A stretch of DNA of 64,000 nt. Origin: Escherichia coli. GTDB taxonomy: Bacteria > Pseudomonadota > Gammaproteobacteria > Enterobacterales > Enterobacteriaceae. A model generated the notes under the pieces. It did not search any database and was not told the DNA's origin. It saw only the letters and a list, made by a program, of their open reading frames with translations. The translations under genes and the position numbers were made by a program. Positions 4,080-32,680 of this stretch are shown here, in pieces. Each line of letters opens with the position of its first letter. The first letter of the stretch is position 1. The DNA is taken from the NCBI RefSeq assembly GCF_001677475.2, contig NZ_CP015229.1. The stretch is one strand, 5' to 3'.

Positions 4080-6866
4080 ATGGTTCAGATCCCCCAAAAT
4101 CCACTTATCCTTGTAGATGGTTCATCTTATCTTTATCGCGCATATCACGCGTTTCCCCCGCTGACTAACAGCGCAGGCGAGCCGACCGGTGCGATGTATG
4201 GTGTCCTCAACATGCTGCGCAGTCTGATCATGCAATATAAACCGACGCATGCAGCGGTGGTCTTTGACGCCAAGGGAAAAACCTTTCGTGATGAACTGTT
4301 TGAACATTACAAATCACATCGCCCGCCAATGCCGGACGATCTGCGAGCACAAATCGAACCTCTGCACGCGATGGTTAAAGCGATGGGACTGCCGCTGCTG
4401 GCGGTTTCTGGCGTAGAAGCGGACGACGTTATCGGTACTCTGGCGCGCGAAGCCGAAAAAGCCGGGCGTCCGGTGCTGATCAGCACTGGCGATAAAGATA
4501 TGGCGCAGCTGGTGACGCCAAATATTACGCTTATCAATACCATGACGAATACCATCCTCGGCCCGGAAGAGGTGGTGAATAAGTACGGCGTGCCGCCAGA
4601 ACTGATCATCGACTTCCTGGCGCTGATGGGTGACTCCTCTGATAACATTCCTGGCGTACCGGGTGTCGGTGAAAAAACCGCGCAGGCATTGCTGCAAGGT
4701 CTTGGCGGGCTGGATACGCTGTATGCCGAACCAGAAAAAATTGCTGGGTTGAGCTTCCGTGGCGCGAAAACAATGGCAGCGAAGCTCGAGCAAAACAAAG
4801 AAGTTGCTTATCTCTCATACCAGCTGGCGACGATTAAAACCGATGTTGAACTGGAGCTGACCTGTGAACAACTGGAAGTGCAGCAACCGGCAGCGGAAGA
4901 GTTGTTGGGGCTGTTCAAAAAATATGAGTTCAAACGCTGGACTGCTGATGTCGAAGCGGGCAAATGGTTACAGGCCAAAGGGGCAAAACCAGCCGCGAAG
5001 CCGCAGGAAACCAGTGTTGCAGACGAAGCACCAGAAGTGACGGCAACGGTGATTTCTTATGACAACTACGTCACCATCCTTGATGAAGAAACACTGAAAG
5101 CGTGGATTGCGAAGCTGGAAAAAACGCCGGTATTTGCATTTGATACTGAAACCGACAGCCTTGATAACATCTCTGCCAACCTGGTCGGGCTTTCTTTTGC
5201 TATCGAGCCAGGCGTAGCGGCATATATTCCGGTTGCTCATGATTATCTTGATGCGCCCGATCAAATCTCTCGCGAGCGTGCACTCGAGTTGCTAAAACCG
5301 CTGCTGGAAGATGAAAAGGCGCTGAAGGTCGGGCAAAACCTGAAATACGATCGCGGTATTCTGGCGAACTACGGCATTGAACTGCGTGGGATTGCGTTTG
5401 ATACCATGCTGGAGTCCTACATTCTCAATAGCGTTGCCGGGCGTCACGATATGGACAGCCTCGCGGAACGTTGGTTGAAGCACAAAACCATCACTTTTGA
5501 AGAGATTGCTGGTAAAGGCAAAAATCAACTGACCTTTAACCAGATTGCCCTCGAAGAGGCCGGACGTTACGCCGCCGAAGATGCTGATGTCACCTTGCAG
5601 TTGCATCTGAAAATGTGGCCGGACCTGCAAAAACACAAAGGGCCGTTGAACGTCTTCGAGAATATCGAAATGCCGCTGGTGCCGGTGCTTTCACGCATTG
5701 AACGTAACGGTGTGAAGATCGATCCGAAAGTTCTGCATAATCATTCTGAAGAGCTCACTCTGCGCCTGGCGGAGCTGGAAAAGAAAGCGCATGAAATTGC
5801 AGGTGAAGAATTTAACCTTTCTTCCACCAAGCAGTTACAAACCATTCTGTTTGAAAAACAGGGCATTAAACCGCTGAAGAAAACGCCGGGTGGCGCGCCG
5901 TCAACGTCGGAAGAGGTACTGGAAGAACTGGCGCTGGACTATCCGTTGCCAAAAGTGATTCTGGAGTATCGTGGTCTGGCGAAGCTGAAGTCGACTTACA
6001 CCGACAAGCTGCCGCTGATGATCAACCCGAAAACCGGGCGTGTGCATACCTCTTATCACCAGGCAGTAACTGCAACGGGACGTTTATCGTCAACCGATCC
6101 TAACCTGCAAAACATTCCGGTGCGTAACGAAGAAGGTCGTCGTATCCGCCAGGCGTTTATTGCGCCAGAGGATTATGTGATTGTCTCAGCGGACTACTCG
6201 CAGATTGAACTGCGCATTATGGCGCATCTCTCGCGTGACAAAGGCTTGCTGACCGCATTCGCGGAAGGAAAAGATATCCACCGAGCTACGGCGGCAGAAG
6301 TGTTTGGTTTGCCTCTGGAAACCGTCACCAGCGAGCAACGCCGTAGCGCGAAAGCGATCAACTTTGGTCTGATTTATGGCATGAGTGCTTTCGGTCTGGC
6401 GCGGCAATTGAACATTCCACGTAAAGAAGCGCAGAAGTACATGGACCTTTACTTCGAACGCTACCCTGGCGTGCTGGAGTATATGGAACGCACCCGTGCT
6501 CAGGCGAAAGAGCAGGGCTACGTTGAAACGCTGGACGGACGCCGTCTGTATCTGCCGGATATCAAATCCAGCAATGGTGCTCGTCGTGCAGCGGCTGAAC
6601 GTGCAGCTATTAACGCGCCAATGCAGGGAACCGCCGCCGACATTATCAAACGGGCGATGATTGCCGTTGATGCGTGGTTACAGGCTGAGCAACCGCGTGT
6701 GCGTATGATCATGCAGGTACACGATGAACTGGTATTTGAAGTTCATAAAGATGATGTCGATGCCGTCGCGAAGCAGATTCATCAACTGATGGAAAACTGT
6801 ACCCGTCTGGATGTGCCGTTGCTGGTGGAAGTGGGGAGTGGTGAAAACTGGGATCAGGCGCACTAA
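4080..6866 (+). CDS. polA: DNA polymerase I
   Basis: 928 aa with a 5'-nuclease domain, a 3'-5' exonuclease domain (FDTETDSL) and a Pol A-family palm ([15 protein letters not shown]). Confidence 0.99.
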
Positions 6867-17555: not shown

Positions 17556-18266
17556 ATGGCGGAGAATCAATCCACCGTAGAAAATGCAAAAGAGAAACTG
17601 GATCGGTGGTTGAAAGATGGCATCACCACGCCGGGTGGAAAACTCCCTTCAGAAAGAGAGCTGGGAGAACTGCTGGGCATTAAACGTATGACGCTGCGCC
17701 AGGCGTTGTTGAACCTCGAGGCAGAATCCAAAATCTTCCGTAAAGATCGTAAGGGGTGGTTCGTGACCCAGCCGCGATTTAATTACAGTCCGGAGCTGTC
17801 GGCGAGCTTTCAGCGGGCCGCAATTGAGCAAGGGCGAGAGCCTTCCTGGGGGTTTACCGAGAAAAACCGTACCAGCGATATTCCCGAGACGCTCGCGCCA
17901 CTGATTGCAGTGACGCCATCAACTGAACTCTATCGCATCACCGGCTGGGGGGCGCTGGAAGGACATAAAGTTTTCTATCACGAAACATATATTAATCCTG
18001 AAGTTGCTCCGGGTTTTATTGAACAACTTGAAAACCACTCATTTTCTGCAGTCTGGGAAAAGTGCTACCAAAAAGAGACGGTAGTAAAAAAATTGATTTT
18101 CAAACCCGTCAGAATGCCGGGCGATATCAGCAAGTATCTTGGCGGTTCTGCGGGTATGCCTGCGATCTTAATTGAAAAGCATCGCGCCGACCAGCAAGGC
18201 AATATTGTCCAGATAGATATTGAATATTGGCGATTTGAGGCCGTAGACCTCATCATTAATCTGTAG
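17556..18266 (+). CDS. yihL: GntR/HutC-family transcriptional regulator YihL
   Basis: 236 aa. Winged-helix segment LPSERELGELLGIKRMTLRQAL plus a UTRA-like C-terminal domain. Confidence 0.9.
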   Translation: MAENQSTVENAKEKLDRWLKDGITTPGGKLPSERELGELLGIKRMTLRQALLNLEAESKIFRKDRKGWFVTQPRFNYSPELSASFQRAAIEQGREPSWGFTEKNRTSDIPETLAPLIAVTPSTELYRITGWGALEGHKVFYHETYINPEVAPGFIEQLENHSFSAVWEKCYQKETVVKKLIFKPVRMPGDISKYLGGSAGMPAILIEKHRADQQGNIVQIDIEYWRFEAVDLIINL

Positions 18267-18273
18267 GTGTTTT

Positions 18274-19254
18274 ATGGTGACAATAAATAACGCAAGAAAG
18301 ATTCTACAACGTGTCGACACTCTTCCTCTTTATTTACATGCTTATGCCTTTCATTTAAATATGCGGCTGGAAAGAGTGTTGCCTGCTGATTTACTTGATA
18401 TCGCAAGTGAAAATAATCTACGTGGCGTCAAAATCCATGTTCTGGATGGCGAGCGTTTTTCTCTTGGTAATATGGACGATAAAGAACTCTCTGCCTTTGG
18501 GGATAAAGCCCGCCGTCTGAACCTTGATATTCATATTGAAACCAGTGCCTCAGATAAAAAATCTATTGACGAAGCCGTCGCCATCGCGTTGAAAACTGGG
18601 GCATCCTCCGTACGTTTTTATCCGCGTTATGAAGGTAATTTGCGCGACGTATTATCGATTATCGCTAACGACATTGCCTATGTACGGGAAACGTATCAGG
18701 ACAGCGGCCTGACTTTTACGATCGAGCAGCATGAAGATTTAAAAAGTCATGAGCTGGTGTCGCTGGTCAAAGAAAGTGAGATGGAGTCTCTTTCCTTACT
18801 GTTTGATTTTGCGAACATGATCAATGCAAATGAGCATCCCATCGACGCTTTAAAAACGATGGCACCGCATATTACCCAGGTCCATATCAAAGATGCCTTG
18901 ATCGTTAAAGAACAGGGTGGCCTGGGTCATAAAGCCTGTATTTCAGGTCAGGGGGATATGCCCTTCAAAGCGTTATTAACGCACCTTATCTGCCTGGGTG
19001 ATGATGAGCCGCAGGTGACGGCATATGGCCTGGAAGAAGAGGTTGATTATTATGCGCCGGCGTTCCGCTTTGAAGACGAAGATGATAATCCGTGGATCCC
19101 TTATCGCCAGATGAGTGAAACACCCCTACCAGAAAATCATTTACTGGATGCGCGGTTACGTAAAGAAAAAGAAGATGCAATTAATCAGATAAATCATGTG
19201 CGTAACGTACTACAACAAATCAAACAAGAGGCAAACTATCTTCTGAACCACTAA
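18274..19254 (+). CDS. yihM: Xylose-isomerase-like TIM-barrel protein YihM (putative sugar-phosphate isomerase/epimerase)
   Basis: 326 aa. K-12 synteny between yihL and yihN. Confidence 0.85.
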   Translation: MVTINNARKILQRVDTLPLYLHAYAFHLNMRLERVLPADLLDIASENNLRGVKIHVLDGERFSLGNMDDKELSAFGDKARRLNLDIHIETSASDKKSIDEAVAIALKTGASSVRFYPRYEGNLRDVLSIIANDIAYVRETYQDSGLTFTIEQHEDLKSHELVSLVKESEMESLSLLFDFANMINANEHPIDALKTMAPHITQVHIKDALIVKEQGGLGHKACISGQGDMPFKALLTHLICLGDDEPQVTAYGLEEEVDYYAPAFRFEDEDDNPWIPYRQMSETPLPENHLLDARLRKEKEDAINQINHVRNVLQQIKQEANYLLNH

Positions 19255-19355
19255 TAAGTTTTAACTCATACGCAGTTAATAAAACCATTCCATATGAATG
19301 GTCGGTATCTTATTGCCTTTAAAACAGTGATTTTAAAAATCGCTTAGGGGATGTT

Positions 19356-20621
19356 ATGCTCACGAAAAAGAAATGGGCGTTATTTAGTCTATTAACACTG
19401 TGTGGCGGTACAATTTATAAATTACCGTCGCTGAAAGATGCGTTTTATATCCCGATGCAGGAATATTTCCATTTGACCAATGGTCAAATTGGTAATGCTA
19501 TGTCGGTAAACTCATTTGTCACCACAGTGGGCTTTTTTCTGTCTATTTATTTTGCCGATAAACTACCGCGCAGATACACCATGTCACTCTCACTCATTGC
19601 GACAGGATTACTGGGTGTTTATTTGACGACAATGCCGGGGTATTGGGGCATCCTCTTTGTCTGGGCGCTATTTGGCGTTACTTGCGACATGATGAACTGG
19701 CCGGTCTTGCTCAAGTCGGTAAGTCGATTGGGCAATAGCGAACAACAAGGTCGGTTGTTTGGCTTCTTCGAAACAGGGCGTGGCATTGTCGATACCGTGG
19801 TGGCATTTTCTGCGTTGGCAGTATTTACCTGGTTTGGCAGTGGCTTATTGGGTTTTAAAGCAGGCATCTGGTTCTATTCCCTTATTGTGATTGCCGTAGG
19901 CATTATTATTTTCTTTGTCCTGAATGACAAAGAAGAGGCACCGTCCGTTGAGGTGAAAAAAGAAGACGGAGCATCGCAAAACACCAGTATGACCTCGGTG
20001 CTGAGAGACAAAACCATCTGGCTTATCGCTTTCAACGTCTTCTTCGTTTACGCGGTTTACTGTGGCCTGACATTCTTCATTCCATTCCTGAAAAACATCT
20101 ATCTATTGCCCGTTGCGTTGGTGGGGGCTTACGGCATCATTAACCAATATTGTCTGAAAATGATTGGAGGACCGATTGGTGGCATGATTTCAGATAAGAT
20201 CCTGAAATCGCCGAGTAAATATCTATGCTACACCTTTATCATCAGTACCGCTGCGCTCGTACTGTTGATTATGCTGCCGCACGAAAGTATGCCGGTCTAT
20301 TTAGGGATGGCATGTACATTAGGCTTTGGCGCGATAGTCTTTACACAGCGAGCCGTATTTTTTGCACCTATCGGCGAAGCAAAAATTGCTGAAAATAAAA
20401 CAGGCGCGGCGATGGCGTTGGGTAGCTTTATTGGTTACGCCCCGGCGATGTTCTGCTTCAGTCTGTATGGCTACATTCTGGATTTAAATCCGGGGATTAT
20501 TGGCTACAAAATCGTGTTTGGCATTATGGCCTGCTTCGCATTCTGTGGTGCGGTGGTTTCCGTAATGCTGGTTAAGCGTATTAGCCAACGTAAGAAAGAG
20601 ATGCTGGCGGCTGAAGCTTAA
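19356..20621 (+). CDS. yihN: MFS transporter YihN
   Basis: 421 aa, about 12 hydrophobic helices. K-12 synteny. Confidence 0.9.
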   Translation: MLTKKKWALFSLLTLCGGTIYKLPSLKDAFYIPMQEYFHLTNGQIGNAMSVNSFVTTVGFFLSIYFADKLPRRYTMSLSLIATGLLGVYLTTMPGYWGILFVWALFGVTCDMMNWPVLLKSVSRLGNSEQQGRLFGFFETGRGIVDTVVAFSALAVFTWFGSGLLGFKAGIWFYSLIVIAVGIIIFFVLNDKEEAPSVEVKKEDGASQNTSMTSVLRDKTIWLIAFNVFFVYAVYCGLTFFIPFLKNIYLLPVALVGAYGIINQYCLKMIGGPIGGMISDKILKSPSKYLCYTFIISTAALVLLIMLPHESMPVYLGMACTLGFGAIVFTQRAVFFAPIGEAKIAENKTGAAMALGSFIGYAPAMFCFSLYGYILDLNPGIIGYKIVFGIMACFAFCGAVVSVMLVKRISQRKKEMLAAEA

Positions 20622-20680: not shown

Positions 20681-21469
20681 TCAGGATACTTCTTGCTCAG
20701 CAACCACCAGTTCAACATTCTCTTCACTTAACAACTGGCAGAAAGAATTGGGAGGCGGGGCATCAGTAAAAAAAGCCCTGACATTCCGTGCATTGCCAAT
20801 TGAAACGGCAGCAGACGCGGCAAACTTCGTATGATCGGCCACTAACAATGTATTCCGCGCATGTTTAATCATCGTTCTTGCGACTAACGCTTCATTGACA
20901 TCAAATTCCAGTAGGGTGCCGTCATGTTCAATGGCACCTATACTGGTGATTAAATAATCTGCGCGGAAGCCTTCAATAAAATCCACGGCTCCTGGGCCGA
21001 TAATCCCGCCGTTATGAGCGCGTAAAGTGCCTCCCGGCACCATCACTTCAATATCCTGATTCTTATAAAGAATCTGTGCCACACGTAGGCTGTTAGTGAT
21101 AATGCGTAAATCACGACGGTTGAGTAATGCCCTGGCAACGGCTTCTACGGTTGTACCGATGGTGATAAAGACGGTACAGCGTTCGGGAAGGTAATCGGCG
21201 ACTGCCTCAGCGATCGCCCGTTTCTCGGCGGTGAGCGAAAGTTCCCGTTGCTCAAAAGCGGTATTCATGACGCTGGAGACGCGCCCGGCCCCTCCATGAT
21301 GACGGGTGATCAACCCCTGCTCACTGAGTTTTCGGATATCCCGGCGCACGGTTTGCGTTGAAACATCCAGCAGTTGTGCCAGTTCTTCAATATTCATATA
21401 ACCGCGTTCTGCGATTAGATGAACGAGTTGGTCATGGCGTGGATTACCTGTCACTTCGATGATACTCAT
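20681..21469 (-). CDS. DeoR-family repressor, YihW/CsqR-like (diverged homologue)
   Basis: 262 aa. HTH segment VSTQTVRRDIRKLSEQGLITRHHGG and a DeoR C-terminal sugar-phosphate sensor domain. Collinear with K-12 CsqR as I recall it, but with substitutions throughout. Confidence 0.85.
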   Translation of the reverse strand: MSIIEVTGNPRHDQLVHLIAERGYMNIEELAQLLDVSTQTVRRDIRKLSEQGLITRHHGGAGRVSSVMNTAFEQRELSLTAEKRAIAEAVADYLPERCTVFITIGTTVEAVARALLNRRDLRIITNSLRVAQILYKNQDIEVMVPGGTLRAHNGGIIGPGAVDFIEGFRADYLITSIGAIEHDGTLLEFDVNEALVARTMIKHARNTLLVADHTKFAASAAVSIGNARNVRAFFTDAPPPNSFCQLLSEENVELVVAEQEVS

Positions 21470-21508
21470 GAATACTCCCTTGCCCCTCCTCGGTATATGT
21501 TTACCATT

Positions 21509-22405
21509 TTACGCATAAAGTGACAAAAATGATTCGGTTTGCTCACGATTAGGAATGCCGGCCCGACCGCCAGGCTGGGTACATTTCATCGCGGCAACCG
21601 CACTGGCAAAACGAATAGCCTCTTTTGTTGGCATTTTTTCTGCCAACGCTACCGCGAGTGCGCCGTGAAAAACATCGCCTGCTCCAGTGGTATCAACCAC
21701 ATTGACAGAAAATGCCTCCTGTTGACACAAATGATCATCTTCAATCCACAACGATCCTTCAGAACCCAGCGTAACATACACTTTACCTGCTGTTTGTGTC
21801 GTTGCCTGGAACAAACCTTCTTCAGGTGACTGCAGGCCAGTCATGCGTTTCAGCCCCGGTGTTGAGAACACGGCGTGATCGGCAAGCGCGACAAGTGGAG
21901 AAATATCCTGCGGTGTCATATCGGCGTCTAAAAGCGTTGTCACCCCCGCAAGGCGCGCTAGCGAGAATGCTTTTTCAGTACCGCTATGCCAGCGAACATC
22001 GGCCAGAATCAGATCATAACGAGAGAAATCGATCGCTTCTAACCATTCGGCATCAGTACCGAGATCGGGACTTGGATAATTAACGATAATCCGTTCGCCA
22101 TGCTGATCAACGAGGATCGCTGATTGCGACGAACGGGCGTTAGGATATCGGCGGCAAAATGCGGTATTGACGCCCCAACCCTCAAGTTCTGCAAGTAAGG
22201 TATTTCCACAACTGTCATCGCCGACGCGACCGATGAAATCAACCTCCACGCCAAGCTTTGCGATTGCAACAGCGGCTGTTGCTGCCGGGCCGCCACCAAT
22301 CTCAAGATAATGATTTGCCTGATATTTCCCGCCGCCATCCGGCAGAGTGAGCAAAGAATAAATCCTGTCCTGAACTGTGATACCCACGCATGCAATTTTT
22401 GTCAT
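21509..22405 (-). CDS. PfkB-family kinase, YihV-like (6-deoxy-6-sulfofructose kinase homologue)
   Basis: Track ORF trimmed to ATG 22405 ([11 protein letters not shown]..., AGGA upstream), giving 298 aa. Motifs [11 protein letters not shown] and [14 protein letters not shown]. Confidence 0.85.
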
Positions 22406-22577
22406 ATTTGTCTTGTCCTGTTTAATTTTGTCGTCTTTGGTCAATTTAAATGACACAAATGATCAAATTAGTGATGTGTGTCGTGTTTTTGAACATAAAT
22501 TACAAATATGCTCAAAAACAGACGAAAACGAATTTTCAATTGTCATTATTTTGTCAATGTCAGACAGGAGAGTATTC
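22406..22577. promoter_or_regulatory. AT-rich divergent control region between the kinase/regulator and reductase/aldolase operons
   Basis: Inverted repeat TGTTTTTGA (22484-22492) / TCAAAAACA (22512-22520). Three TGTCA direct repeats at 22541-22562. No protein-like coding. Confidence 0.5.
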
Positions 22578-23456
22578 ATGGCAACCATTGCATTTCTCGG
22601 GCTGGGGCAGATGGGTAGCCCAATGGCTAACAATCTATTGCGAAAAGGGCATTCATTGCAGGTATTTGATGTCAATGCACAGGCCGTCGATGCGCTAGTT
22701 ACGCAGGGGGCCACTGCGGCACAAACCCCAGCGGAAGCGGCAGCAGGCGCTGAATTTATCATCACTATGCTTCCCAATGGTGACATTGTTCGACAGGTTC
22801 TGTTGGGGGAAAAAGGCGTCTGTGAGGCTGTTTCATCTGACGCGTTATTGATTGATATGTCGACTATTCATCCCTTACAGACCGATGCATTAATACGGGA
22901 GTTACAAGAAAAAGGCATCAGTATGATGGACGCCCCCGTGGGCAGAACATCCGTGAATGCGATTGATGGCACATTGCTGATTTTAGCGGGTGGCACTGAT
23001 GAGCAGATTGCGCGTGCACGCCCGATTCTCATGTGCATGGGTAATGAGCTGGTCGAGGCTGGCGGCCCAGGAATGGGGATCCGCGTGAAGCTAATTAACA
23101 ACTATATGAGCATTGCGCTTAATGCGCTGTCCTCCGAGGCCGCTGTGTTATGTGAGTCACTGGGATTAAATCTTGATGTCGCAATTAAGGTGATGAGTGG
23201 TACGGCAGCAGGGAAAGGACATTTTACGACCACCTGGCCTGGCAAAGTGCTGAAAGGCGATCTTTCACCCGCCTTCATGGTGGATCTGGCGTTGAAAGAT
23301 CTGCGTATTGCAGTTGACGTCGCTCGGGAGACGGGGGCACCGCTCAATATGGGGATTGCAGCAGAAAGTTATTACGCCGCAGCAAGTCAAGACGGCAAAG
23401 GGCGGCAGGACTGGAGCGCCCTGCTAAATCAGGTTCGCCAGCAGGCTGGTCTTTAA
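22578..23456 (+). CDS. NAD(P)-dependent beta-hydroxyacid dehydrogenase, YihU-like (sulfolactaldehyde reductase homologue)
   Basis: Start moved to ATG 22578 ([26 protein letters not shown] upstream), giving 292 aa. Rossmann GxGxxG motif. 3-hydroxyisobutyrate-dehydrogenase family. Confidence 0.85.
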
Positions 23457-23480
23457 TTTTATCTATTAACAGGAGTTTCT

Positions 23481-24368
23481 ATGTCATCCCACTTCACCCC
23501 ATTTACGCTGAAAGATATCTCCCGCCCAGGTGGTGGATTCGCCATGTTAGCTGTCGATCAGCGTGAGGCCATGCGCCTGATGTTTGCGGCAGCAGGGCAG
23601 CCCAAACCCATCGCCGACAGTGTACTCACCGATTTTAAAGTTGCCGCGACCCGAATCCTTTCTCCTTATGCTTCTGCCGTTCTGGCGGATAAACAATTTT
23701 GTCTTGAGCAAATAGTCGAGCAGGGCGCTGTTGCTAATTCTTGCGGCCTGATTGTCGCTGCCGATCTTTTTATCCCAGGTAATGGCATCCCGGTTGATAG
23801 CGTTGAAATAGATATGTCCGTCGACCCGCATAAAGCCCGTGAAATGGGGGCTAAGGCAATGAAATTACTTGTACTCTGGCGTGAAGATGAACCCGCAGAG
23901 GAACGTCTGGCAATGGTTGATAAATTTGTTCGTCGCTGCCGTAGTGCCGGACTGGTTAGCATTATTGAACCTGTGGTGCGTCCACCTCGTCGCGGTTGGG
24001 ACTTTGATCGTGAAAGCGCCATTGCCGCGGCCGCCGCAGAGCTTGGTGGAACAGAGGCTGATCTTTACAAAGCCGAGATGCCATTAGGGGGCAAAGGCGA
24101 TGAAAAAACCTTACTTGCCGCCTGTCAGCAACTTAACGATCAGATGAAGATGCCGTGGGTAATTCTTTCTTCTGGCGTTGATGCCGATATTTTTGGCCGT
24201 GCAGTAAGTATTGCCATGAAAGGTGGGGCGTCGGGCTTCCTGGCTGGACGAGCGGTTTGGGCGTCGGTTGTTGGTGCACAAGATCCACAAACTATGCTGC
24301 GCGATGTCTCCGTTCCACGCTTGCAACGGCTGGCTGAAATTGTCGATGAAGGTATCGCGCAACGCTAA
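23481..24368 (+). CDS. Class I aldolase, YihT-like (sulfofructose-phosphate aldolase / LacD family)
   Basis: 295 aa. Long collinear blocks shared with K-12 YihT as recalled: [69 protein letters not shown]. Confidence 0.85.
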
Positions 24369-24400
24369 TCCCCTATGGATATCGATTCTGGAGAATAACA

Positions 24401-25411
24401 ATGGATAAAAGTACCCAGGTTTTATTTTCAGATATTGGGAAAGTCACCACTCAATATGTTGAAGTACCACACCAGGAACTTAAACCGCACGAAGTGCGGA
24501 TTGCGCCTGTGTTCTATGGGATATGCGGTTCGGATCTGCATGTTCTGAAAGGCGGTCATCCGTTTGCCAAACCACCTGTCGTCCCCGGTCATGAAATTGC
24601 AGCGCGCGTTGCGGAAGTTGGCAGCGACGTTAAAAATGTACAGCCGGGCGATCATGTTGTGGTCGATCCCATCATGGCTTGCATGGAATGCCGAGCCTGC
24701 AAAGCAGGACGTTTTAATCTTTGTGAACCACCGCAGGTTGCTGGTTTTCGCGCACCGGGCTTTGCTCGCTCACAACACATTGTTCCTGCGCGTAATTGCC
24801 ATGTCGCACCAGCCTCTTTACCGCTAAAAGTGTTAGCCTTTGCCGAACCGGCGGCTTGTGCTCGTCACTGCGTTAACCGAATGCCGAAAGCTTCTCTGGA
24901 AAGCGTACTGGTGATTGGTGCCGGAACGATAGGCTTATCCATCGTGCAGGCACTGCGCATTATGGGGGCAGGTAAGATTACCGTGATTGAACCTGACGCT
25001 GCCAAACGCGCGCTGGCGTTAAAGCTGGGCGCAGCAGAAGTTTGGGCACCAGGTGAGCTGGCCGCAGATGTGCGATTTACGGGGGCGATTGATGTCGTTG
25101 CAGCGCAGGCCACGCTTAACGATGCATGTACCCGTGTATATGCCGGAGGCACCGTCGTGTGCATGGGCGTACCAAGTGGGCCGCGTGAAATACCATTACC
25201 TATGATGCAACGTTTCGAGCGTGACTTGCTCAACTCTGGCATGTACATCCCTGAAGATTTCGATGCTGTTATCGAATGGCTGGCGGATGGGCGGTTTGAT
25301 ACCAGTGAACTGGTTACCGATTTATTTGCCATTGAGGATGCAGCGGCGGCATTCGAACGCGCGCAGCAAAATGACTCCATAAAGGTCATGCTGCAATTTG
25401 CGCCGGAATGA
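24401..25411 (+). CDS. Zinc-dependent medium-chain dehydrogenase/reductase (polyol/threonine dehydrogenase-like)
   Basis: 336 aa. Catalytic Zn ligands in GICGSDLH and PGHE. Structural Zn site CMECRACKAGRFNLC. NAD-binding fold VIGAGTIGL. Confidence 0.85.
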   Translation: MDKSTQVLFSDIGKVTTQYVEVPHQELKPHEVRIAPVFYGICGSDLHVLKGGHPFAKPPVVPGHEIAARVAEVGSDVKNVQPGDHVVVDPIMACMECRACKAGRFNLCEPPQVAGFRAPGFARSQHIVPARNCHVAPASLPLKVLAFAEPAACARHCVNRMPKASLESVLVIGAGTIGLSIVQALRIMGAGKITVIEPDAAKRALALKLGAAEVWAPGELAADVRFTGAIDVVAAQATLNDACTRVYAGGTVVCMGVPSGPREIPLPMMQRFERDLLNSGMYIPEDFDAVIEWLADGRFDTSELVTDLFAIEDAAAAFERAQQNDSIKVMLQFAPE

Positions 25412-25480
25412 TTTTCTAAATCTCTGTCTGGCGCTGCGTCACGTCAGCGCCACCCTACAACAATTAAAAAGGACACTGCG

Positions 25481-26914
25481 ATGAGTCAAATCACCAGTCC
25501 TGCAACTTATTCAATTAGTCGGCCACAGGACGTAATTGATATTGTTAATAAGAACTCTGCAATCAACACCAGTATCGGCGTTATTTTTATTGCTTTGGGC
25601 GGCATATTGATTGATGCCTACCAGGCGGCGATGGTGGGGTTTGGTAATAAATACATTGCCGCTCAATTCGGCATTTCGCCGGGTCTTGCTGCAACCGTCA
25701 ATGCATCAGTATTAATCGCCGCGTTAATTGGCGGTTTATTAGCGAACCGAGTAATAAACCGCTTTGGGCAAAAGCGGGCATTTATTATTGGCATGGGGCT
25801 GTGCACCATCGGTGCTGCAGCGGTAGCTATTGCTCCCAGTATCTGGTGGGTGCTGGTGTGCCGCGTCATCATGGGCTTTGGTTTAGGCATCGACTTCCCT
25901 TTGGCAACCAATGCCGTGGCAGAGCTTCGTGGTTCAACGTCGAAGAAAACCGGAACGTCGGTCAACCTCTGGCAAATGGCCTGGTATGTTTCGACAACCG
26001 TTGTTTATTTGGTGCTTTTGCCGCTGCTTCTGTCGGGTATCGCTGAAGAACAATTGTGGCGTTACGGAATATTCATCGGAGCTATTTTTGCAGTCATCTT
26101 CATGATTTTGCGTTACTTCTTTATTGGTGAATCCGCAATGTGGGCTGCACGCGTCGGGCGTTACCAGGAAGCGTGCGACATTCTGGGAAAACGTTATGGT
26201 GTTCAGGCTCGCGTTGCGGCATCGGGTACAACAGAAGCGAAATTCTCGGAAAAAGCAGAGAATAAATACAGTGGTGGATATGGCATCTTATTTAATGATC
26301 GTTACCGCAAACGCACCATTCTTGGTTGTGTCGTGGCAACCATGCAGGCGTGGCAATATAACGCCGTAGGTGTTTATCTTCCTCTTACGTTGGCGGGAAT
26401 AATAAGTGGCGGGCTTACTGGCGCGTTGACCGGTTCTGCCGTCGTGAATGCCCTTTGTGGGGTGACAGGTGGGATGATCGGCTCGTTTATTCTCCAACGA
26501 CTGGGTACTCGCCGACAGTCGATGTATGGATTTGCTGTTGTGACCTTAGCATTGCTGTCGTTAGGCGCACTGGCAACGACTAATCCCTGGCTGTCTTTAG
26601 GGTTATTGGGATCAATTATTTTCTTCCATTCAGCGGGTCCTGGTGGGCTGGGCATGACCATTGCCACACTCTCTTATCCTCCCGCTATTCGTCCTACTGG
26701 GGTCGGATTTGCCCGCGCTATTATGCGCACAGGGGCAATTGCAGGACTCATTTTCTGGCCGATGCTGTGGGGTACGTTGAAAACTGAAGCGTTTTATTGG
26801 TTGGCAATTGTGCCATTCCTGGGGTTCCTGACCTGCGTATTGATTAATTGGGAACCTTTGGGAGCAAATGTTGATGCTGAGGATGCAGAGGTTCTGGCTG
26901 AATTGAAGAAATAA
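25481..26914 (+). CDS. MFS transporter, sugar-porter-like
   Basis: 477 aa, about 12 TM helices. Loop 2-3 motif LANRVINRFGQKR, RVIMGFGLG, and GESAMWAA resembling the PESPRW motif. Confidence 0.8.
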   Translation: MSQITSPATYSISRPQDVIDIVNKNSAINTSIGVIFIALGGILIDAYQAAMVGFGNKYIAAQFGISPGLAATVNASVLIAALIGGLLANRVINRFGQKRAFIIGMGLCTIGAAAVAIAPSIWWVLVCRVIMGFGLGIDFPLATNAVAELRGSTSKKTGTSVNLWQMAWYVSTTVVYLVLLPLLLSGIAEEQLWRYGIFIGAIFAVIFMILRYFFIGESAMWAARVGRYQEACDILGKRYGVQARVAASGTTEAKFSEKAENKYSGGYGILFNDRYRKRTILGCVVATMQAWQYNAVGVYLPLTLAGIISGGLTGALTGSAVVNALCGVTGGMIGSFILQRLGTRRQSMYGFAVVTLALLSLGALATTNPWLSLGLLGSIIFFHSAGPGGLGMTIATLSYPPAIRPTGVGFARAIMRTGAIAGLIFWPMLWGTLKTEAFYWLAIVPFLGFLTCVLINWEPLGANVDAEDAEVLAELKK

Positions 26915-27012
26915 ATTAATGCGCATCGGCTTAAACCGATGCGCATTAATTCAAACTGCCCACGTTTAGTGGTTCGTATCCCAGATTTCTCGCCTACCAG
27001 GAGAGGAAAATT

Positions 27013-28362
27013 ATGTCTGAAAAGTTACCCGCACCGCGTGAAGGGCTTTCCGGTAAAGCCATGAGACGTGTCGTTATGGGCAGTTTCGCAGGCGCGTTAA
27101 TGGAATGGTATGACTTCTTTATTTTTGGCACGGCAGCAGGACTGGTATTTGCACCGCTGTTTTATCCAGACAGCGATCCTTTTATAGGTCTTATAGCTTC
27201 CTTTGCGACCTTTGGTGTCGGTTTTCTGACTCGTCCTTTAGGTGGCATCGTCTTTGGTCATTTTGGCGATAAAATCGGGCGAAAAATAACACTTATCTGG
27301 ACGCTGGCTATTGTCGGTTGCTCCACATTTTTGATTGGTTTTATTCCGACGTATCAGGAAATTGGCATTTGGGCACCGCTTGTATTAATGGTGCTGCGTT
27401 TGATTCAGGGCTTTGGTCTTGGTGGCGAGTACGGCGGAGCGGCATTGATGACCATAGAATCAGCGCCCGAATCCCGACGCGGATTTTTAGGTTCACTCCC
27501 GCAAACGGCTGCGTCTGTGGGTATTATGCTGGCAACCGGTATTTTTGCTCTCTGTAACCATTTTCTTACTTCGGAGCAGTTTCTCTCCTGGGGATGGCGC
27601 ATTCCGTTTTGGCTTTCTGCGGTGATGTTGATCGTTGGGCTGTTTATCCGCCTGCATACCGAAGAAACGCTGGATTTTCAAAAGCAAAAAACGACGAATA
27701 ATAAAGAAAAGTCCGTTCCTCCGTTGATTGAATTATTCAAAAAACATCCACGAAATATTTTATTGGCACTGGGTGCGAGGCTGGCGGAAAGTGTCTCCTC
27801 TAATATTATTAACGCCTTTGGTATTGTCTATATTTCCAGCCAATTAGCATTGTCGCGAGATATTCCCCTGACGGGTATGTTGATTGCCTCGGCGATCGGT
27901 ATTTTCAGTTGTCCATTGGTTGGATGGTTATCAGATCGTATAGGTCAAAAAAGTCTGTATTTGTCGGGAGCAGGATTTTGTGTCCTGTTCGCGTTTCCTT
28001 TCTTCTTATTACTGGATAGCAAAAGTACGCTCATCATCTGGTGCAGTATGATCCTCGGCTACAACTTAGGTCCGACGATGATGTTTGCCGTGCAGCCAAC
28101 ACTTTTCACCCGCATGTTCGGTACCAAAGTACGATATACCGGCCTTTCTTTTGCTTATCAATTTTCCGCGATTCTTGGCGGACTAAGCCCCCTTATCGCC
28201 TCAAGTTTGCTGGCGCTAGGGGGAGGAAAACCGTGGTATGTCGCTCTGTTTTTATTTGCTGTCTCAGTTCTTTCCTTTGTTTGCGTCTGGCTGATTGAGC
28301 CGACCGATGAACAAGAAACCGCTTCTTACCGCTACATCAGGGAACAATCTCATGAAAACTGA
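27013..28362 (+). CDS. MFS transporter, metabolite:H+ symporter (MHS; ProP/KgtP/ShiA-like) family
   Basis: 449 aa. Motifs RPLGGIVFGHFGDKIGRK and RLIQGFGLGGEYGGA, typical of the MHS family. Confidence 0.8.
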   Translation: MSEKLPAPREGLSGKAMRRVVMGSFAGALMEWYDFFIFGTAAGLVFAPLFYPDSDPFIGLIASFATFGVGFLTRPLGGIVFGHFGDKIGRKITLIWTLAIVGCSTFLIGFIPTYQEIGIWAPLVLMVLRLIQGFGLGGEYGGAALMTIESAPESRRGFLGSLPQTAASVGIMLATGIFALCNHFLTSEQFLSWGWRIPFWLSAVMLIVGLFIRLHTEETLDFQKQKTTNNKEKSVPPLIELFKKHPRNILLALGARLAESVSSNIINAFGIVYISSQLALSRDIPLTGMLIASAIGIFSCPLVGWLSDRIGQKSLYLSGAGFCVLFAFPFFLLLDSKSTLIIWCSMILGYNLGPTMMFAVQPTLFTRMFGTKVRYTGLSFAYQFSAILGGLSPLIASSLLALGGGKPWYVALFLFAVSVLSFVCVWLIEPTDEQETASYRYIREQSHEN

Positions 28363-29239
28363 ACGAAAAAACGAGCATTACCTGGCGCTACAACAGGCGT
28401 TTGACGCGCCATGGCCTGGGCCTGTAGGAGAGTTAGTGACGCTGGAAAAAGGCAATATTCACCTGCAGATTTATCCGCATGATGGTGCCAGGATAACCTC
28501 GTTAAAGGCATTTGGTTCTGAAGTATTACGCCAATGGCAGCCGCAGCGCAGAGCTTTTCAGTATGGCTGTTTCCCAATGGTGCCGTGGGCAGGGCGACTG
28601 GGGAATGCGACGCTGAATGCTGGTGGGCAATGTTATTCTTTACCCGCCAATAAACCACCACATGCGTTGCATGGTATGGCTTGTTACTCAACGTGGGAAA
28701 TCATCGACAAAACAATAGATTCCCTGACTTTACGTATGCCCCTGGCTTCACCGTGGCCCTGGCAAGGGGAAGTGATTCAGACTTTTTTGCTGGAGAACGA
28801 TGCGCTGGTTTTGCAACTGGAAATCCATTCACATACCGATACATTCCCGGCCTCTGCAGGCTGGCATCCGTGGTTTGCGAAAAAGCTGACTCCGCAAAAT
28901 ACAGAATCGTTGCAGGTGCTTTTTGATGCGGACTGGCAAGAGGAAGCGGGTAGTGATGAACTGCCAACTGGAAATCGCATCTCTCCTCAAGCTGGTCCCT
29001 GGGATGACTGTTTTGGTTTTTATGACGGGGTGAAGGTTAAGTTACTGTGGCCTGGTAAACTCACGATGACCATGACCTCTTCTGCAAACAGTCTGGTGGT
29101 ATTTGATAAACAGCCCGATGCCACCTGTGTTAATCCGCTTACTCAGGCACCTAACGCAATAAATCTAACGCCGGAATTGGTGACATCAGATAAGCCGCTG
29201 GTCATCGAAACTCGTTGGCAATTTACACCTGAATCTTAA
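28352..29239 (+). CDS. Aldose 1-epimerase (mutarotase) family protein, YihR-like
   Basis: Track ORF 28295-29239. Preferred start is ATG 28352 (MKTERKNEHY..., 295 aa), overlapping the upstream stop by 11 nt. Motifs PPHALHG and SAGWHPWF. Confidence 0.7.
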   Translation: MKTERKNEHYLALQQAFDAPWPGPVGELVTLEKGNIHLQIYPHDGARITSLKAFGSEVLRQWQPQRRAFQYGCFPMVPWAGRLGNATLNAGGQCYSLPANKPPHALHGMACYSTWEIIDKTIDSLTLRMPLASPWPWQGEVIQTFLLENDALVLQLEIHSHTDTFPASAGWHPWFAKKLTPQNTESLQVLFDADWQEEAGSDELPTGNRISPQAGPWDDCFGFYDGVKVKLLWPGKLTMTMTSSANSLVVFDKQPDATCVNPLTQAPNAINLTPELVTSDKPLVIETRWQFTPES

Positions 29240-32300: not shown

Positions 32301-32680
32301 TTCAGGTCATTTACATTAGCCTCTGACTATTCCGGTTATATTGAATAAGAACTCTATTAATTTTTATTCTTCGTTGGCACCATACGTGTCTTGCTACATC
32401 ACTGTTCAGGAGCATTTAAATATTATTTGTAGAGGTGAGTGGCAATTATCGCCGATAATGCTTAATTCATCATCTTACTTCAGGTTTGAGCGATTTTTGA
32501 TAGTCAAAACCCCCTATGGTGCCATACTTTTCTCATAAATATTTTTAAAATCTATAGCTAACTAACATTATGCAAAGATAATGGGCTGGCACCATTGTCA
32601 GTATCATTCATTTACTGCTTCTAGATGTTGTAAATAATTATGTTGTATGTTTGCTCTTAAACCGTGGGAAGGAGGCTGTA

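Follow-up and report, generated by a model that had tools for sequence, protein, structure and literature searches.

A zinc-dependent dehydrogenase as proposed entry enzyme of an isomerase-free sulfoglycolytic module at the yih locus of Escherichia coli

We describe a gene cassette in a 64,000 nt window of Escherichia coli DNA (assembly GCF_001677475.2, contig NZ_CP015229.1). The eight genes of the cassette (positions 20681–29239) appear, judged by their sequences, to constitute an intact and self-contained sulfoglycolytic module and not a truncated form of the cassette of strain K-12. The entry step of the module is probably catalyzed by a zinc-dependent dehydrogenase (24401–25411, plus strand) of the MDR (medium-chain dehydrogenase/reductase) type. 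In the proposed pathway, an anionic C6 sulfonate would be imported by the second of two major facilitator superfamily (MFS) transporters, MFS2, and the dehydrogenase would use NAD+ to oxidize the C2 alcohol of a 6-deoxy-6-sulfo-hexitol (gluco/manno alditol), giving 6-deoxy-6-sulfofructose. Sulfofructose would then be phosphorylated by a YihV-like kinase to sulfofructose-1-phosphate, which a YihT-like aldolase would cleave into dihydroxyacetone phosphate (DHAP) and sulfolactaldehyde; the latter would be converted by YihU to 2,3-dihydroxypropane-1-sulfonate (DHPS), to be exported by the first transporter, MFS1. The dehydrogenase would thereby hold the pathway position of the K-12 isomerase YihS. 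Since a redox enzyme in this position must feed a 2-ketose to the kinase, its reaction is most simply the oxidation of the C2 carbinol; the assignment as NAD+-dependent oxidation of a sulfo-hexitol to sulfofructose is tentative, and we place it slightly below even chances. On balance, and with modest confidence, we favor the broader claim that the module represents an unrecognized branch of sulfoglycolysis in several phyla, in which a Zn/NAD-dependent dehydrogenase replaces the sulfoquinovose (SQ) isomerase and which serves either an undescribed natural sulfonated hexitol or a new redox isomerization of SQ to sulfofructose. An earlier reading of this stretch (the original prediction) had outlined a route from a polyol via a ketose and a ketose 1-phosphate to DHAP and a C3 aldehyde that is reduced and exported; this still appears to be the route that fits best.

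The dehydrogenase (336 aa) is encoded by an ATG-initiated open reading frame (ORF) that occupies exactly positions 24401–25411. A GGAG Shine-Dalgarno sequence lies 9 nt upstream of the gene, and the distance to the stop codon of the aldolase gene in front is only 32 nt. The motifs GICGSDLH (residues 40–47), GHE (63–65) and CMECRACKAGRFNLC (94–108), as well as the neighboring genes, were recovered as the original prediction had described them. The Pfam domains ADH_N (92 bits) and ADH_zinc_N (64 bits) both exceed their gathering scores. An AlphaFold2 model of the protein has a predicted local distance difference test (pLDDT) value of 92.6, and Foldseek matches the dehydrogenase to MDR structures with template modeling (TM) scores of 0.84–0.91 at 24–28% identity; these neighbors include unassigned rhizobial MDRs, YdjJ, threonine dehydrogenase (TDH), L-idonate 5-dehydrogenase, RspB, sorbitol dehydrogenase (SDH), GatD and HpsP. 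The catalytic zinc ligands C42, H64, E65 and E149, which are of the SDH/TDH type, are invariant in 19 orthologues and in 71 sister sequences, and their positions correspond, in alignment, to the ligand motifs in RspB and in ketose reductase. The cysteines of the structural zinc lobe (C94, C97, C100 and C108) and the Rossmann motif G173-A-G175-T-I-G178 are likewise invariant. An acidic residue, E197, is found in 18 of the 19 orthologues and is replaced by Asp in the other one; such a residue is typical of NAD rather than NADP dependence. The protein thus appears to bear all marks of an active MDR enzyme.

We note that the dehydrogenase reaches none of the curated equivalog cut-offs of NCBIfam. 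Its best match is the RspB-type family PRK10083 (NF007489, 164.8 bits against a cut-off of 376), followed by IolM (NF041097, 148.9 against 450), Tdh (NF003808, 139.9 against 380), IdnD (NF007375, 125.2 against 469) and GatD (NF007642, 112.9 against 550, residues 22–225 only). The dehydrogenase is therefore considered a separate family. GatD, SDH, IdnD and Tdh had originally been named as relatives; in the profile- and structure-based assignment, the protein is an orthologue of none of them, and its nearest named family is RspB. Orthologues share 55–93% identity, and the next sequences are at most 45% identical. They occur in Enterobacterales (Citrobacter, Erwinia, Budvicia, Leminorella, Edaphovirga, Jejubacter), in Vibrio, in Alphaproteobacteria (Rhodopseudomonas, Roseospira, Telmatospirillum, Rhodovastum, Pleomorphomonas) and in Actinobacteria (Streptomyces, Propionicimonas). 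A genome scan based on a full-length alignment picked generic MDR motifs and returned mostly sister-family genes, with only nine true module loci; the scan was repeated on metagenomes with a C-terminal, family-specific alignment. Relative to an outgroup of 71 sister-family MDRs (29–36% identical), the family shows invariant gains of charge, namely Q117 to R, D/E271 to R, L274 to R, L203 to R and D/E320 to R. According to sequence alignment with SDH and ketose reductase, positions 117 and 271–274 are located in loops that flank residues of the substrate cleft, and the gain of R117, R271 and R274 would fit an anionic substrate. With 91–93% identity to its Citrobacter and Erwinia orthologues, the dehydrogenase is the most highly conserved of the cassette proteins. 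The cassette genes are under purifying selection, with a dN/dS of 0.02–0.17 between genera where computable; dS estimates (NG86) were saturated or undefined for several gene pairs, and the values quoted are those of the pairs that returned values. Sister-family genes adjoin sugar transporters and PfkB kinases as well, for example in Roseburia faecis in the order ROK, dehydrogenase, GPH transporter, PfkB kinase, which shows, as far as gene order can tell, that polyol dehydrogenases and ketose kinases are repeatedly found in combination.

The enzymes that would act downstream constrain what the substrate can be. Their pockets have been described for homologous proteins and comprise K27-N109-R138 together with D13, S95 and the catalytic D244 in EcYihV, the Schiff-base K193 with S226, S227, R253 and A26 in SeYihT, and N174, S178 and R123 in EcYihU (PMC8006165). 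All of these residues are kept in the window. The PfkB kinase (21509–22405, minus strand, 298 aa), a YihV-like predicted sulfofructose kinase, aligns ungapped to EcYihV (7ag6, 428 bits) and retains D13, K27, S95, N109, R138 and D244. The class I aldolase of the DeoC/LacD family (23481–24368, plus strand, 295 aa), a YihT-like predicted sulfofructose-1-phosphate aldolase, aligns ungapped to 7ag1/7ag7 (414 bits) and retains A26, K193, S226, S227 and R253. YihU (22578–23456, plus strand, 292 aa), the predicted sulfolactaldehyde reductase, aligns ungapped to 6sm7 (452 bits), retains R123, N174 and S178, and passes the NCBIfam equivalog NF012005 (579 bits against a cut-off of 348). With these residues kept, the kinase substrate is expected to be sulfofructose-like and the pathway to end in DHAP and sulfolactaldehyde, the latter being reduced to DHPS; by its predicted pocket, the substrate of the kinase is almost certainly sulfofructose or else a stereoisomer very close to it. 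The original prediction had considered an alditol or a deoxy- or sulfo-sugar derivative as substrate. The sulfonated option is supported by the conserved triad of the kinase, by K193/S226/S227/R253 of the aldolase and by N174/S178 of the reductase; these residues, together with the aldehyde dehydrogenase, sulfolactate-lyase-like and TauE genes found beside related modules, make plain alditols and deoxy-sugars unlikely. Likewise, the comparison with the galactitol/tagatose route remains valid for the layout and for nothing beyond it. A role as aldose 1-dehydrogenase giving sulfogluconolactone was also considered, the leads being a weak Glu_dehyd_C match and the yphB-yphC pair of K-12. It was ruled out: kinase and aldolase keep their sulfofructose contacts, and the module has no conserved lactonase or dehydratase.

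The cassette is located between yihN and yihX, where K-12 has ompL-yihOPQRSTUVW. With this sulfoglycolytic system of the sulfo-EMP type (EMP, Embden-Meyerhof-Parnas; Denger et al. 2014; Sharma et al. 2021, PMC8006165) it shares the site, a homologous regulator, kinase, aldolase and reductase with identical sulfonate-pocket residues, and the predicted products DHAP and DHPS. It differs in its inverted orientation, in the lack of YihQ, YihS, OmpL and YihO/YihP, and in the presence of the Zn-dependent MDR dehydrogenase, two unrelated MFS transporters and a YphB-like epimerase-fold protein; moreover, the corresponding cassette of strain Nissle 1917 is not induced by SQ. Queries with YihS, YihQ, YihO, YihP and OmpL of K-12 gave zero tblastn matches across the whole 64-kb window. 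Hence the cassette is indeed without the isomerase and the glycosidase, as originally noted, and the Zn-dehydrogenase is its only conserved extra enzyme. All eight ORFs are full length. The DeoR-family regulator (20681–21469, minus strand, 262 aa; Pfam HTH_DeoR and DeoRC), which is YihW/CsqR-like, the kinase, the reductase and the aldolase are 72%, 67%, 72% and 67% identical to their K-12 counterparts, respectively, the regulator being compared with CsqR. The flanking yihL, yihM and yihN (17556–20621) have 99–100% protein identity to K-12. By this step in identity, the cassette is apparently an allelic replacement whose borders are sharp. At 74% identity, the aldolase of the Rhodopseudomonas palustris module is nearer to that of the cassette than is YihT of K-12 (67%), which argues that the short cassette is a separate lineage and no deletion derivative.

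The same locus has been described by Kaznadzey et al. (2025, PMC12608037) as a truncated short form, yihTUVW, that is inverted with respect to K-12 and is carried by the probiotic Nissle 1917 and many pathogenic strains, including extraintestinal pathogenic E. coli. The window agrees with this short cassette in location, orientation, strain distribution and the 72% identity of YihW. We found the cassette in 1384 of 5426 complete E. coli genomes (at least 95% identity), or about a quarter. In Nissle 1917, no induction by SQ was seen in either RNA-seq or qRT-PCR; in electrophoretic mobility shift assays, YihW of Nissle binds the yihU/V region, its binding being less strong at 37 °C and its release by SQ less effective (PMC12608037). 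The lack of induction agrees with the original expectation that the cassette handles a substrate other than SQ. Growth of Nissle 1917 on SQ, similar to that of K-12, has been reported although the strain has no YihS homologue (PMC12608037); the medium was M9 with 5% LB, and because of the LB this growth is no proof of SQ catabolism. PMC12608037 does not discuss the genes for the dehydrogenase, the two MFS transporters and the epimerase-like protein and does not have them in its tables of differentially expressed genes, and no cassette gene is listed in the corresponding tables of its supplement. Where the published account has four genes and a truncation, we find eight genes with an aldolase-dehydrogenase-MFS-MFS-epimerase core of a separate lineage. 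In the literature searched, including reviews and a survey of class II aldolases, no description of a dehydrogenase-type sulfo-EMP variant was found. New with respect to this literature are the eight-gene module in several phyla, the dehydrogenase as a replacement of the isomerase, and the specific substrate hypothesis.

Conservation of the module was assessed in about 30 non-E. coli loci from genomes and metagenome contigs. In these loci, the dehydrogenase always occurs together with an aldolase and a PfkB kinase, and the other parts differ from locus to locus. Homologues of YihS and YihQ are absent from all of these loci, and no Pfam family of the SqvD-type isomerase is found among the called genes of the related loci (SqvD was not searched by sequence). 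The core of aldolase, dehydrogenase and transporter is found in Enterobacterales, Vibrio, Alphaproteobacteria and Actinobacteria, and the gene set of the cassette recurs in Vibrio, Rhodopseudomonas, Roseospira, Streptomyces and Propionicimonas. Parts that are exchanged include the aldolase (class I or II), the kinase (YihV-type or about 30% identical), the transporters (MFS or ABC, ATP binding cassette), the epimerase (present or absent) and the reductase slot, which is filled by a YihU-type enzyme, another reductase of the HIBADH family or an aldehyde dehydrogenase. Modules of Enterobacterales and Vibrio (type A) have orthologues of YihV, YihU and YihW with the sulfonate residues kept; their aldolase is of class I or, in Vibrio, Budvicia, Citrobacter sp. 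NCU1 and Jejubacter, of class II (F_bP_aldolase). In modules of Alphaproteobacteria and Actinobacteria (type B), kinase and reductase are about 30% identical to YihV and YihU; the aldolase (68–74%), the dehydrogenase (64–70%) and, where present, the epimerase (about 52%) are clear orthologues of the window's proteins, as are MFS1 and MFS2. In some loci, an aldehyde dehydrogenase takes the place of the reductase and MFS1, and further genes suggest a sulfonate context. A Pseudomonas module (L014, UBA5706) includes an aldehyde dehydrogenase (Aldedh), a split SAF/GD_AH pair resembling SuyAB, a DctA-type carrier and two Ldh_2 genes resembling sulfolactate dehydrogenase; a Streptomyces module (L090) has TauE between aldolase and dehydrogenase, plus Aldedh and the enolase-superfamily protein MR_MLE. 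Two actinobacterial metagenome contigs (L136 and L137) carry SAF/GD_AH, Aldedh, 2-Hacid_dh, kinase, aldolase and dehydrogenase in one string, and contig L091 has an ABC transporter in place of MFS. The dehydrogenase is the one enzyme for which no locus has a substitute. It is kept with each of the outlets for sulfolactaldehyde, and this puts its step upstream of the aldolase, presumably in the slot of the isomerase. From this context we infer that the module is sulfoglycolytic.

Two further observations concern individual loci. MR_MLE genes lie beside the aldehyde dehydrogenase in Jejubacter (L089, 12571–13767) and in the Streptomyces module (5082–6269); the encoded enzymes might act on sulfolactate or another sulfonated acid. 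In Citrobacter murliniae (L008, 9080–13748) and Erwinia typographi (L007, 11081–12505), aldolase, MFS1 or MFS2 give partial matches or MFS1 has an in-frame stop. Such defects could reflect pseudogenes or faulty assembly; both genomes have an intact dehydrogenase gene.

The transporters of the cassette have no significant similarity to YihO or YihP. MFS1 (25481–26914, plus strand, 477 aa; Pfam Sugar_tr/MFS_1) has no homologue in the modules with an aldehyde dehydrogenase (L014, L015, L089, L090, L136 and L137), whereas modules with a reductase carry it, except for L091 with its ABC transporter. By this distribution, MFS1 is probably the exporter of DHPS. MFS2 (27013–28362, plus strand, 449 aa) resembles the metabolite:H+ symporter family (TIGR00883, 407 bits) and the ShiA type (410 bits), both matches being under the cut-off. 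Most modules have it, the minimal modules L014, L015 and L090 among them, with the ABC system instead in L091; MFS2 is the likely importer of the substrate. The last gene of the cassette (28352–29239, plus strand, 295 aa) encodes an aldose-1-epimerase-fold protein (Pfam PF01263, Aldose_epim, 79 bits against 27) whose best PDB match is 3nre; it is YphB-like (26% identity) and not an orthologue of YihR (27%). Residues His107 and His172 align with His104 and His175 of GalM and are kept. The position of the catalytic Glu309 of GalM, which is Glu also in YihR and YphB, is occupied by Asn261 in the window (codon AAT, 29132–29134). Across the 30 epimerase-like orthologues checked, this position is Asn in 24 and Glu in 6, and the protein may not be a canonical mutarotase. 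The original prediction had taken the mutarotase-like gene as a sign that a ring-forming aldose is involved. This argument is weak, as the gene is missing from many modules and the catalytic Glu is replaced in E. coli. An epimerase gene next to an MDR dehydrogenase is also seen elsewhere in K-12 (L088, 2673816–2675761), where yphB adjoins yphC, coding for a Zn-binding dehydrogenase, beside a sugar ABC transporter. YphB and YphC are only 26% and 22% identical to the epimerase-like protein and the dehydrogenase of the cassette, respectively, and the association of both folds may be a recurrent pairing.

Among known systems, the RspB/GulD type (PDB 4ilk) is both the best named family and the best PDB sequence match of the dehydrogenase, and shares its fold, its zinc sites and a PFAK-type loop. 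We take this family (RspB/PRK10083) to be the one named L-gulonate 5-dehydrogenase (EC 1.1.1.380) in KEGG and in earlier literature. The identity is about 30%, RspB is without R117 and Q270-R271-F272-E273-R274, which are invariant in the family of the window, and the anion is a carboxylate there but would be a sulfomethyl group here. The L-gulonate dehydrogenase HiGulD acts on the penultimate carbinol of an anionic hexonate and yields D-fructuronate (PMC5788505); this conversion may be regarded as a carboxylate analogue of the proposed dehydrogenase reaction. SDH (1pl6) and GatD (4a2c) share the MDR fold (TM about 0.9) and a sequence of events in which an alcohol is converted to a ketone, followed by a sugar kinase and an aldolase, but they are only 25–27% identical to the dehydrogenase, and Arg298 of SDH aligns with Tyr282. 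GatD acts on a phosphorylated hexitol and is partnered by the class II aldolase GatYZ. The ydjLKJIHG cluster of E. coli, studied by the Raushel laboratory, is likewise a combination of Zn-dependent dehydrogenase, PfkB kinase, aldolase and MFS transporter for an acidic sugar. It comprises two Zn-dependent MDRs, the PfkB kinase YdjH, the aldolase YdjI and the MFS transporter YdjK; its aldolase is reportedly of class II and its substrates carboxylated sugars of the heptose/octose type, with no involvement of sulfonate residues. The structure of ECK1772 (5vm2) is the third Foldseek match of the dehydrogenase (27% identity), and YdjH (3h49) is among the matches of the kinase.

A number of observations weigh against oxidation of a sulfo-hexitol as the entry step. 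No natural 6-deoxy-6-sulfo-hexitol is reported in the literature searched, and the epimerase-fold gene of most modules has no obvious job with an acyclic substrate. The weak release of the Nissle YihW from DNA by SQ in vitro (PMC12608037) hints at an SQ-like effector. In type B modules, kinase and reductase are without the sulfonate residues of YihV and YihU, and only the aldolase and the gene context speak for sulfonate specificity in these modules. Finally, the dN/dS of the dehydrogenase (about 0.03 between genera) is a rough figure, with dS near saturation. As the main alternative it is conceivable, if rather unlikely in our estimate, that SQ itself is the substrate and that the dehydrogenase provides half or all of a polyol-type redox bypass around the missing isomerase. 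The sulfo-alditol would arise from reduction of SQ at C1, for which an unlinked aldose reductase or the Zn enzyme itself with bound NADH could serve, and its re-oxidation at C2 would give sulfofructose; the part of the epimerase-fold protein would be to provide the right anomer or the open chain. MDR-type SDH is the second enzyme of the classical polyol pathway from aldose to ketose, which lends the bypass some plausibility, as do the presence of the epimerase-fold gene in most modules, the similarity of the regulator to CsqR (72%) with its weak release by SQ, and the reported growth of Nissle 1917 on SQ. This growth, however, is inconclusive with 5% LB in the medium, SQ does not induce the Nissle cassette, the minimal modules L014, L090 and L136 are without a second reductase, and the epimerase gene is missing in many modules and has Asn for the catalytic Glu in E. 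coli. To our knowledge, there is no precedent for an MDR enzyme acting as a redox-neutral aldose-ketose isomerase. A role further downstream, as an oxidoreductase of sulfolactaldehyde or DHPS with sulfofructose being taken up or made by an entry enzyme encoded elsewhere, has a precedent in HpsP (PDB 8wwd), a Zn-dependent MDR that oxidizes S-DHPS to sulfolactaldehyde (PMC11131964). HpsP is among the neighbors of the dehydrogenase (108 bits; Foldseek rank 14), and the dehydrogenase could stand in where a HIBADH-type reductase is absent (L014, L089, L090). HpsP acts on the primary alcohol of a C3 sulfonate and is encoded in hpsNOP operons that have no adjacent kinase and aldolase. We regard the downstream role as improbable: with about 26% identity, HpsP is no closer to the dehydrogenase than other MDRs are. 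An HpsP-like activity would duplicate the dedicated YihU-type reductase of most modules, and the dehydrogenase persists where an aldehyde dehydrogenase already removes sulfolactaldehyde. About 30 modules would moreover be left without an entry enzyme, and free sulfofructose is no known environmental substrate.

The similarity to yihTUV could also reflect nothing but common ancestry, with the cassette serving a non-sulfonated polyol or deoxy-sugar by analogy with galactitol and tagatose. The combination of dehydrogenase, PfkB kinase and LacD-family aldolase does resemble the layout of the hexitol/tagatose route, SQ is no inducer, and the kinases and reductases of Alphaproteobacteria and Actinobacteria are without the sulfonate residues. 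We nevertheless hold this to be distinctly improbable, considering that the E. coli kinase, aldolase and reductase keep all sulfonate-pocket residues, that yihU scores above the curated cut-off for sulfolactaldehyde reductase, that related modules lie beside TauE, SuyAB-like, sulfolactate-dehydrogenase-like and aldehyde dehydrogenase genes, and that the importer belongs to a family of organic-anion symporters. Very improbable, finally, is the view that the cassette is what a decaying long yih cassette has left behind, without a current catabolic role and with the dehydrogenase as an unrelated neighbor. It would be in line with the term truncated short form of the 2025 study, and with the lack of a transcriptional response to SQ and the weak repressor binding reported there. 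A remnant is hard to reconcile with eight full-length ORFs, with at least 95% identity in 1384 of 5426 complete E. coli genomes, with the same gene set in Vibrio, Rhodopseudomonas, Roseospira, Streptomyces and Propionicimonas, with a between-genus dN/dS of 0.02–0.17 where computable, or with an aldolase that is nearer to those of alphaproteobacterial modules than to YihT of K-12.

Several features of the locus and its surroundings remain to be described. Mechanical ORF calls gave over-extended N termini for yihU (22377–23456), the kinase (21509–22456) and the epimerase-like gene (28295–29239); alignment to the sequences of crystal structures and RefSeq annotation (for the kinase, the start in AR_0077) place the true starts at 22578, 22405 and 28352, respectively. 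By these coordinates, the start of the epimerase-like gene overlaps the end of MFS2 by 11 nt, and the kinase and yihU diverge from an intergenic control region (22406–22577) in which no consensus sigma-70 site was found; its homologue in Nissle 1917 is the yihU/V region bound by YihW. A scan for terminator-like structures detected a perfect 19-bp inverted repeat (26912–26953, region TAAATTAATGCGCATCGGC...GCCGATGCGCATTAATTCA) between the MFS genes, which overlaps the stop codon of MFS1 and is located 60 nt ahead of MFS2; it could be a terminator, an attenuator or an element of the REP (repetitive extragenic palindromic) type that splits the operon. The gene yihM (18274–19254), which lies 1.4 kb upstream of the cassette and is 99% identical to yihM of K-12, encodes a xylose-isomerase-like TIM barrel and was considered as a hidden isomerase. 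It was rejected: yihM flanks both cassette types and is missing from the modules outside Escherichia and Citrobacter, and is therefore flanking DNA and not a gene of the cassette. One metagenome locus (L121) is a mosaic, with a regulator (87%) and a kinase (82%) nearer to K-12 and an aldolase-dehydrogenase side of the short type. Together with the step in identity at the cassette, this suggests recombination between cassette types within the yihU/V/W block. Further downstream, just past fabY, an island of 41% GC contains an ORF of 614 aa (32651–34495) that starts with TTG and matches no Pfam family. It is followed by two ribbon-helix-helix genes (CopG-type, yiiE/yiiF-like) and a PIN-domain gene (35144–36223), likely a toxin-antitoxin set.

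SQ and the compounds formed from it play a major part in the sulfur cycle and in the gut cross-feeding that leads to H2S. The pathway of K-12 is the textbook case, yet about a quarter of the complete E. coli genomes hold the other cassette. Should the dehydrogenase prove to be the entry enzyme, the short cassette would be a complete pathway, either for a different sulfonated substrate or with another way into sulfofructose. It would add a new enzyme class to sulfoglycolysis and possibly point to a new natural organosulfonate, and matches to yihT, yihU and yihV in genomes and metagenomes that lack the isomerase would have to be read differently. The function of the short cassette, which the 2025 study had left open, thus becomes a question about one enzyme.

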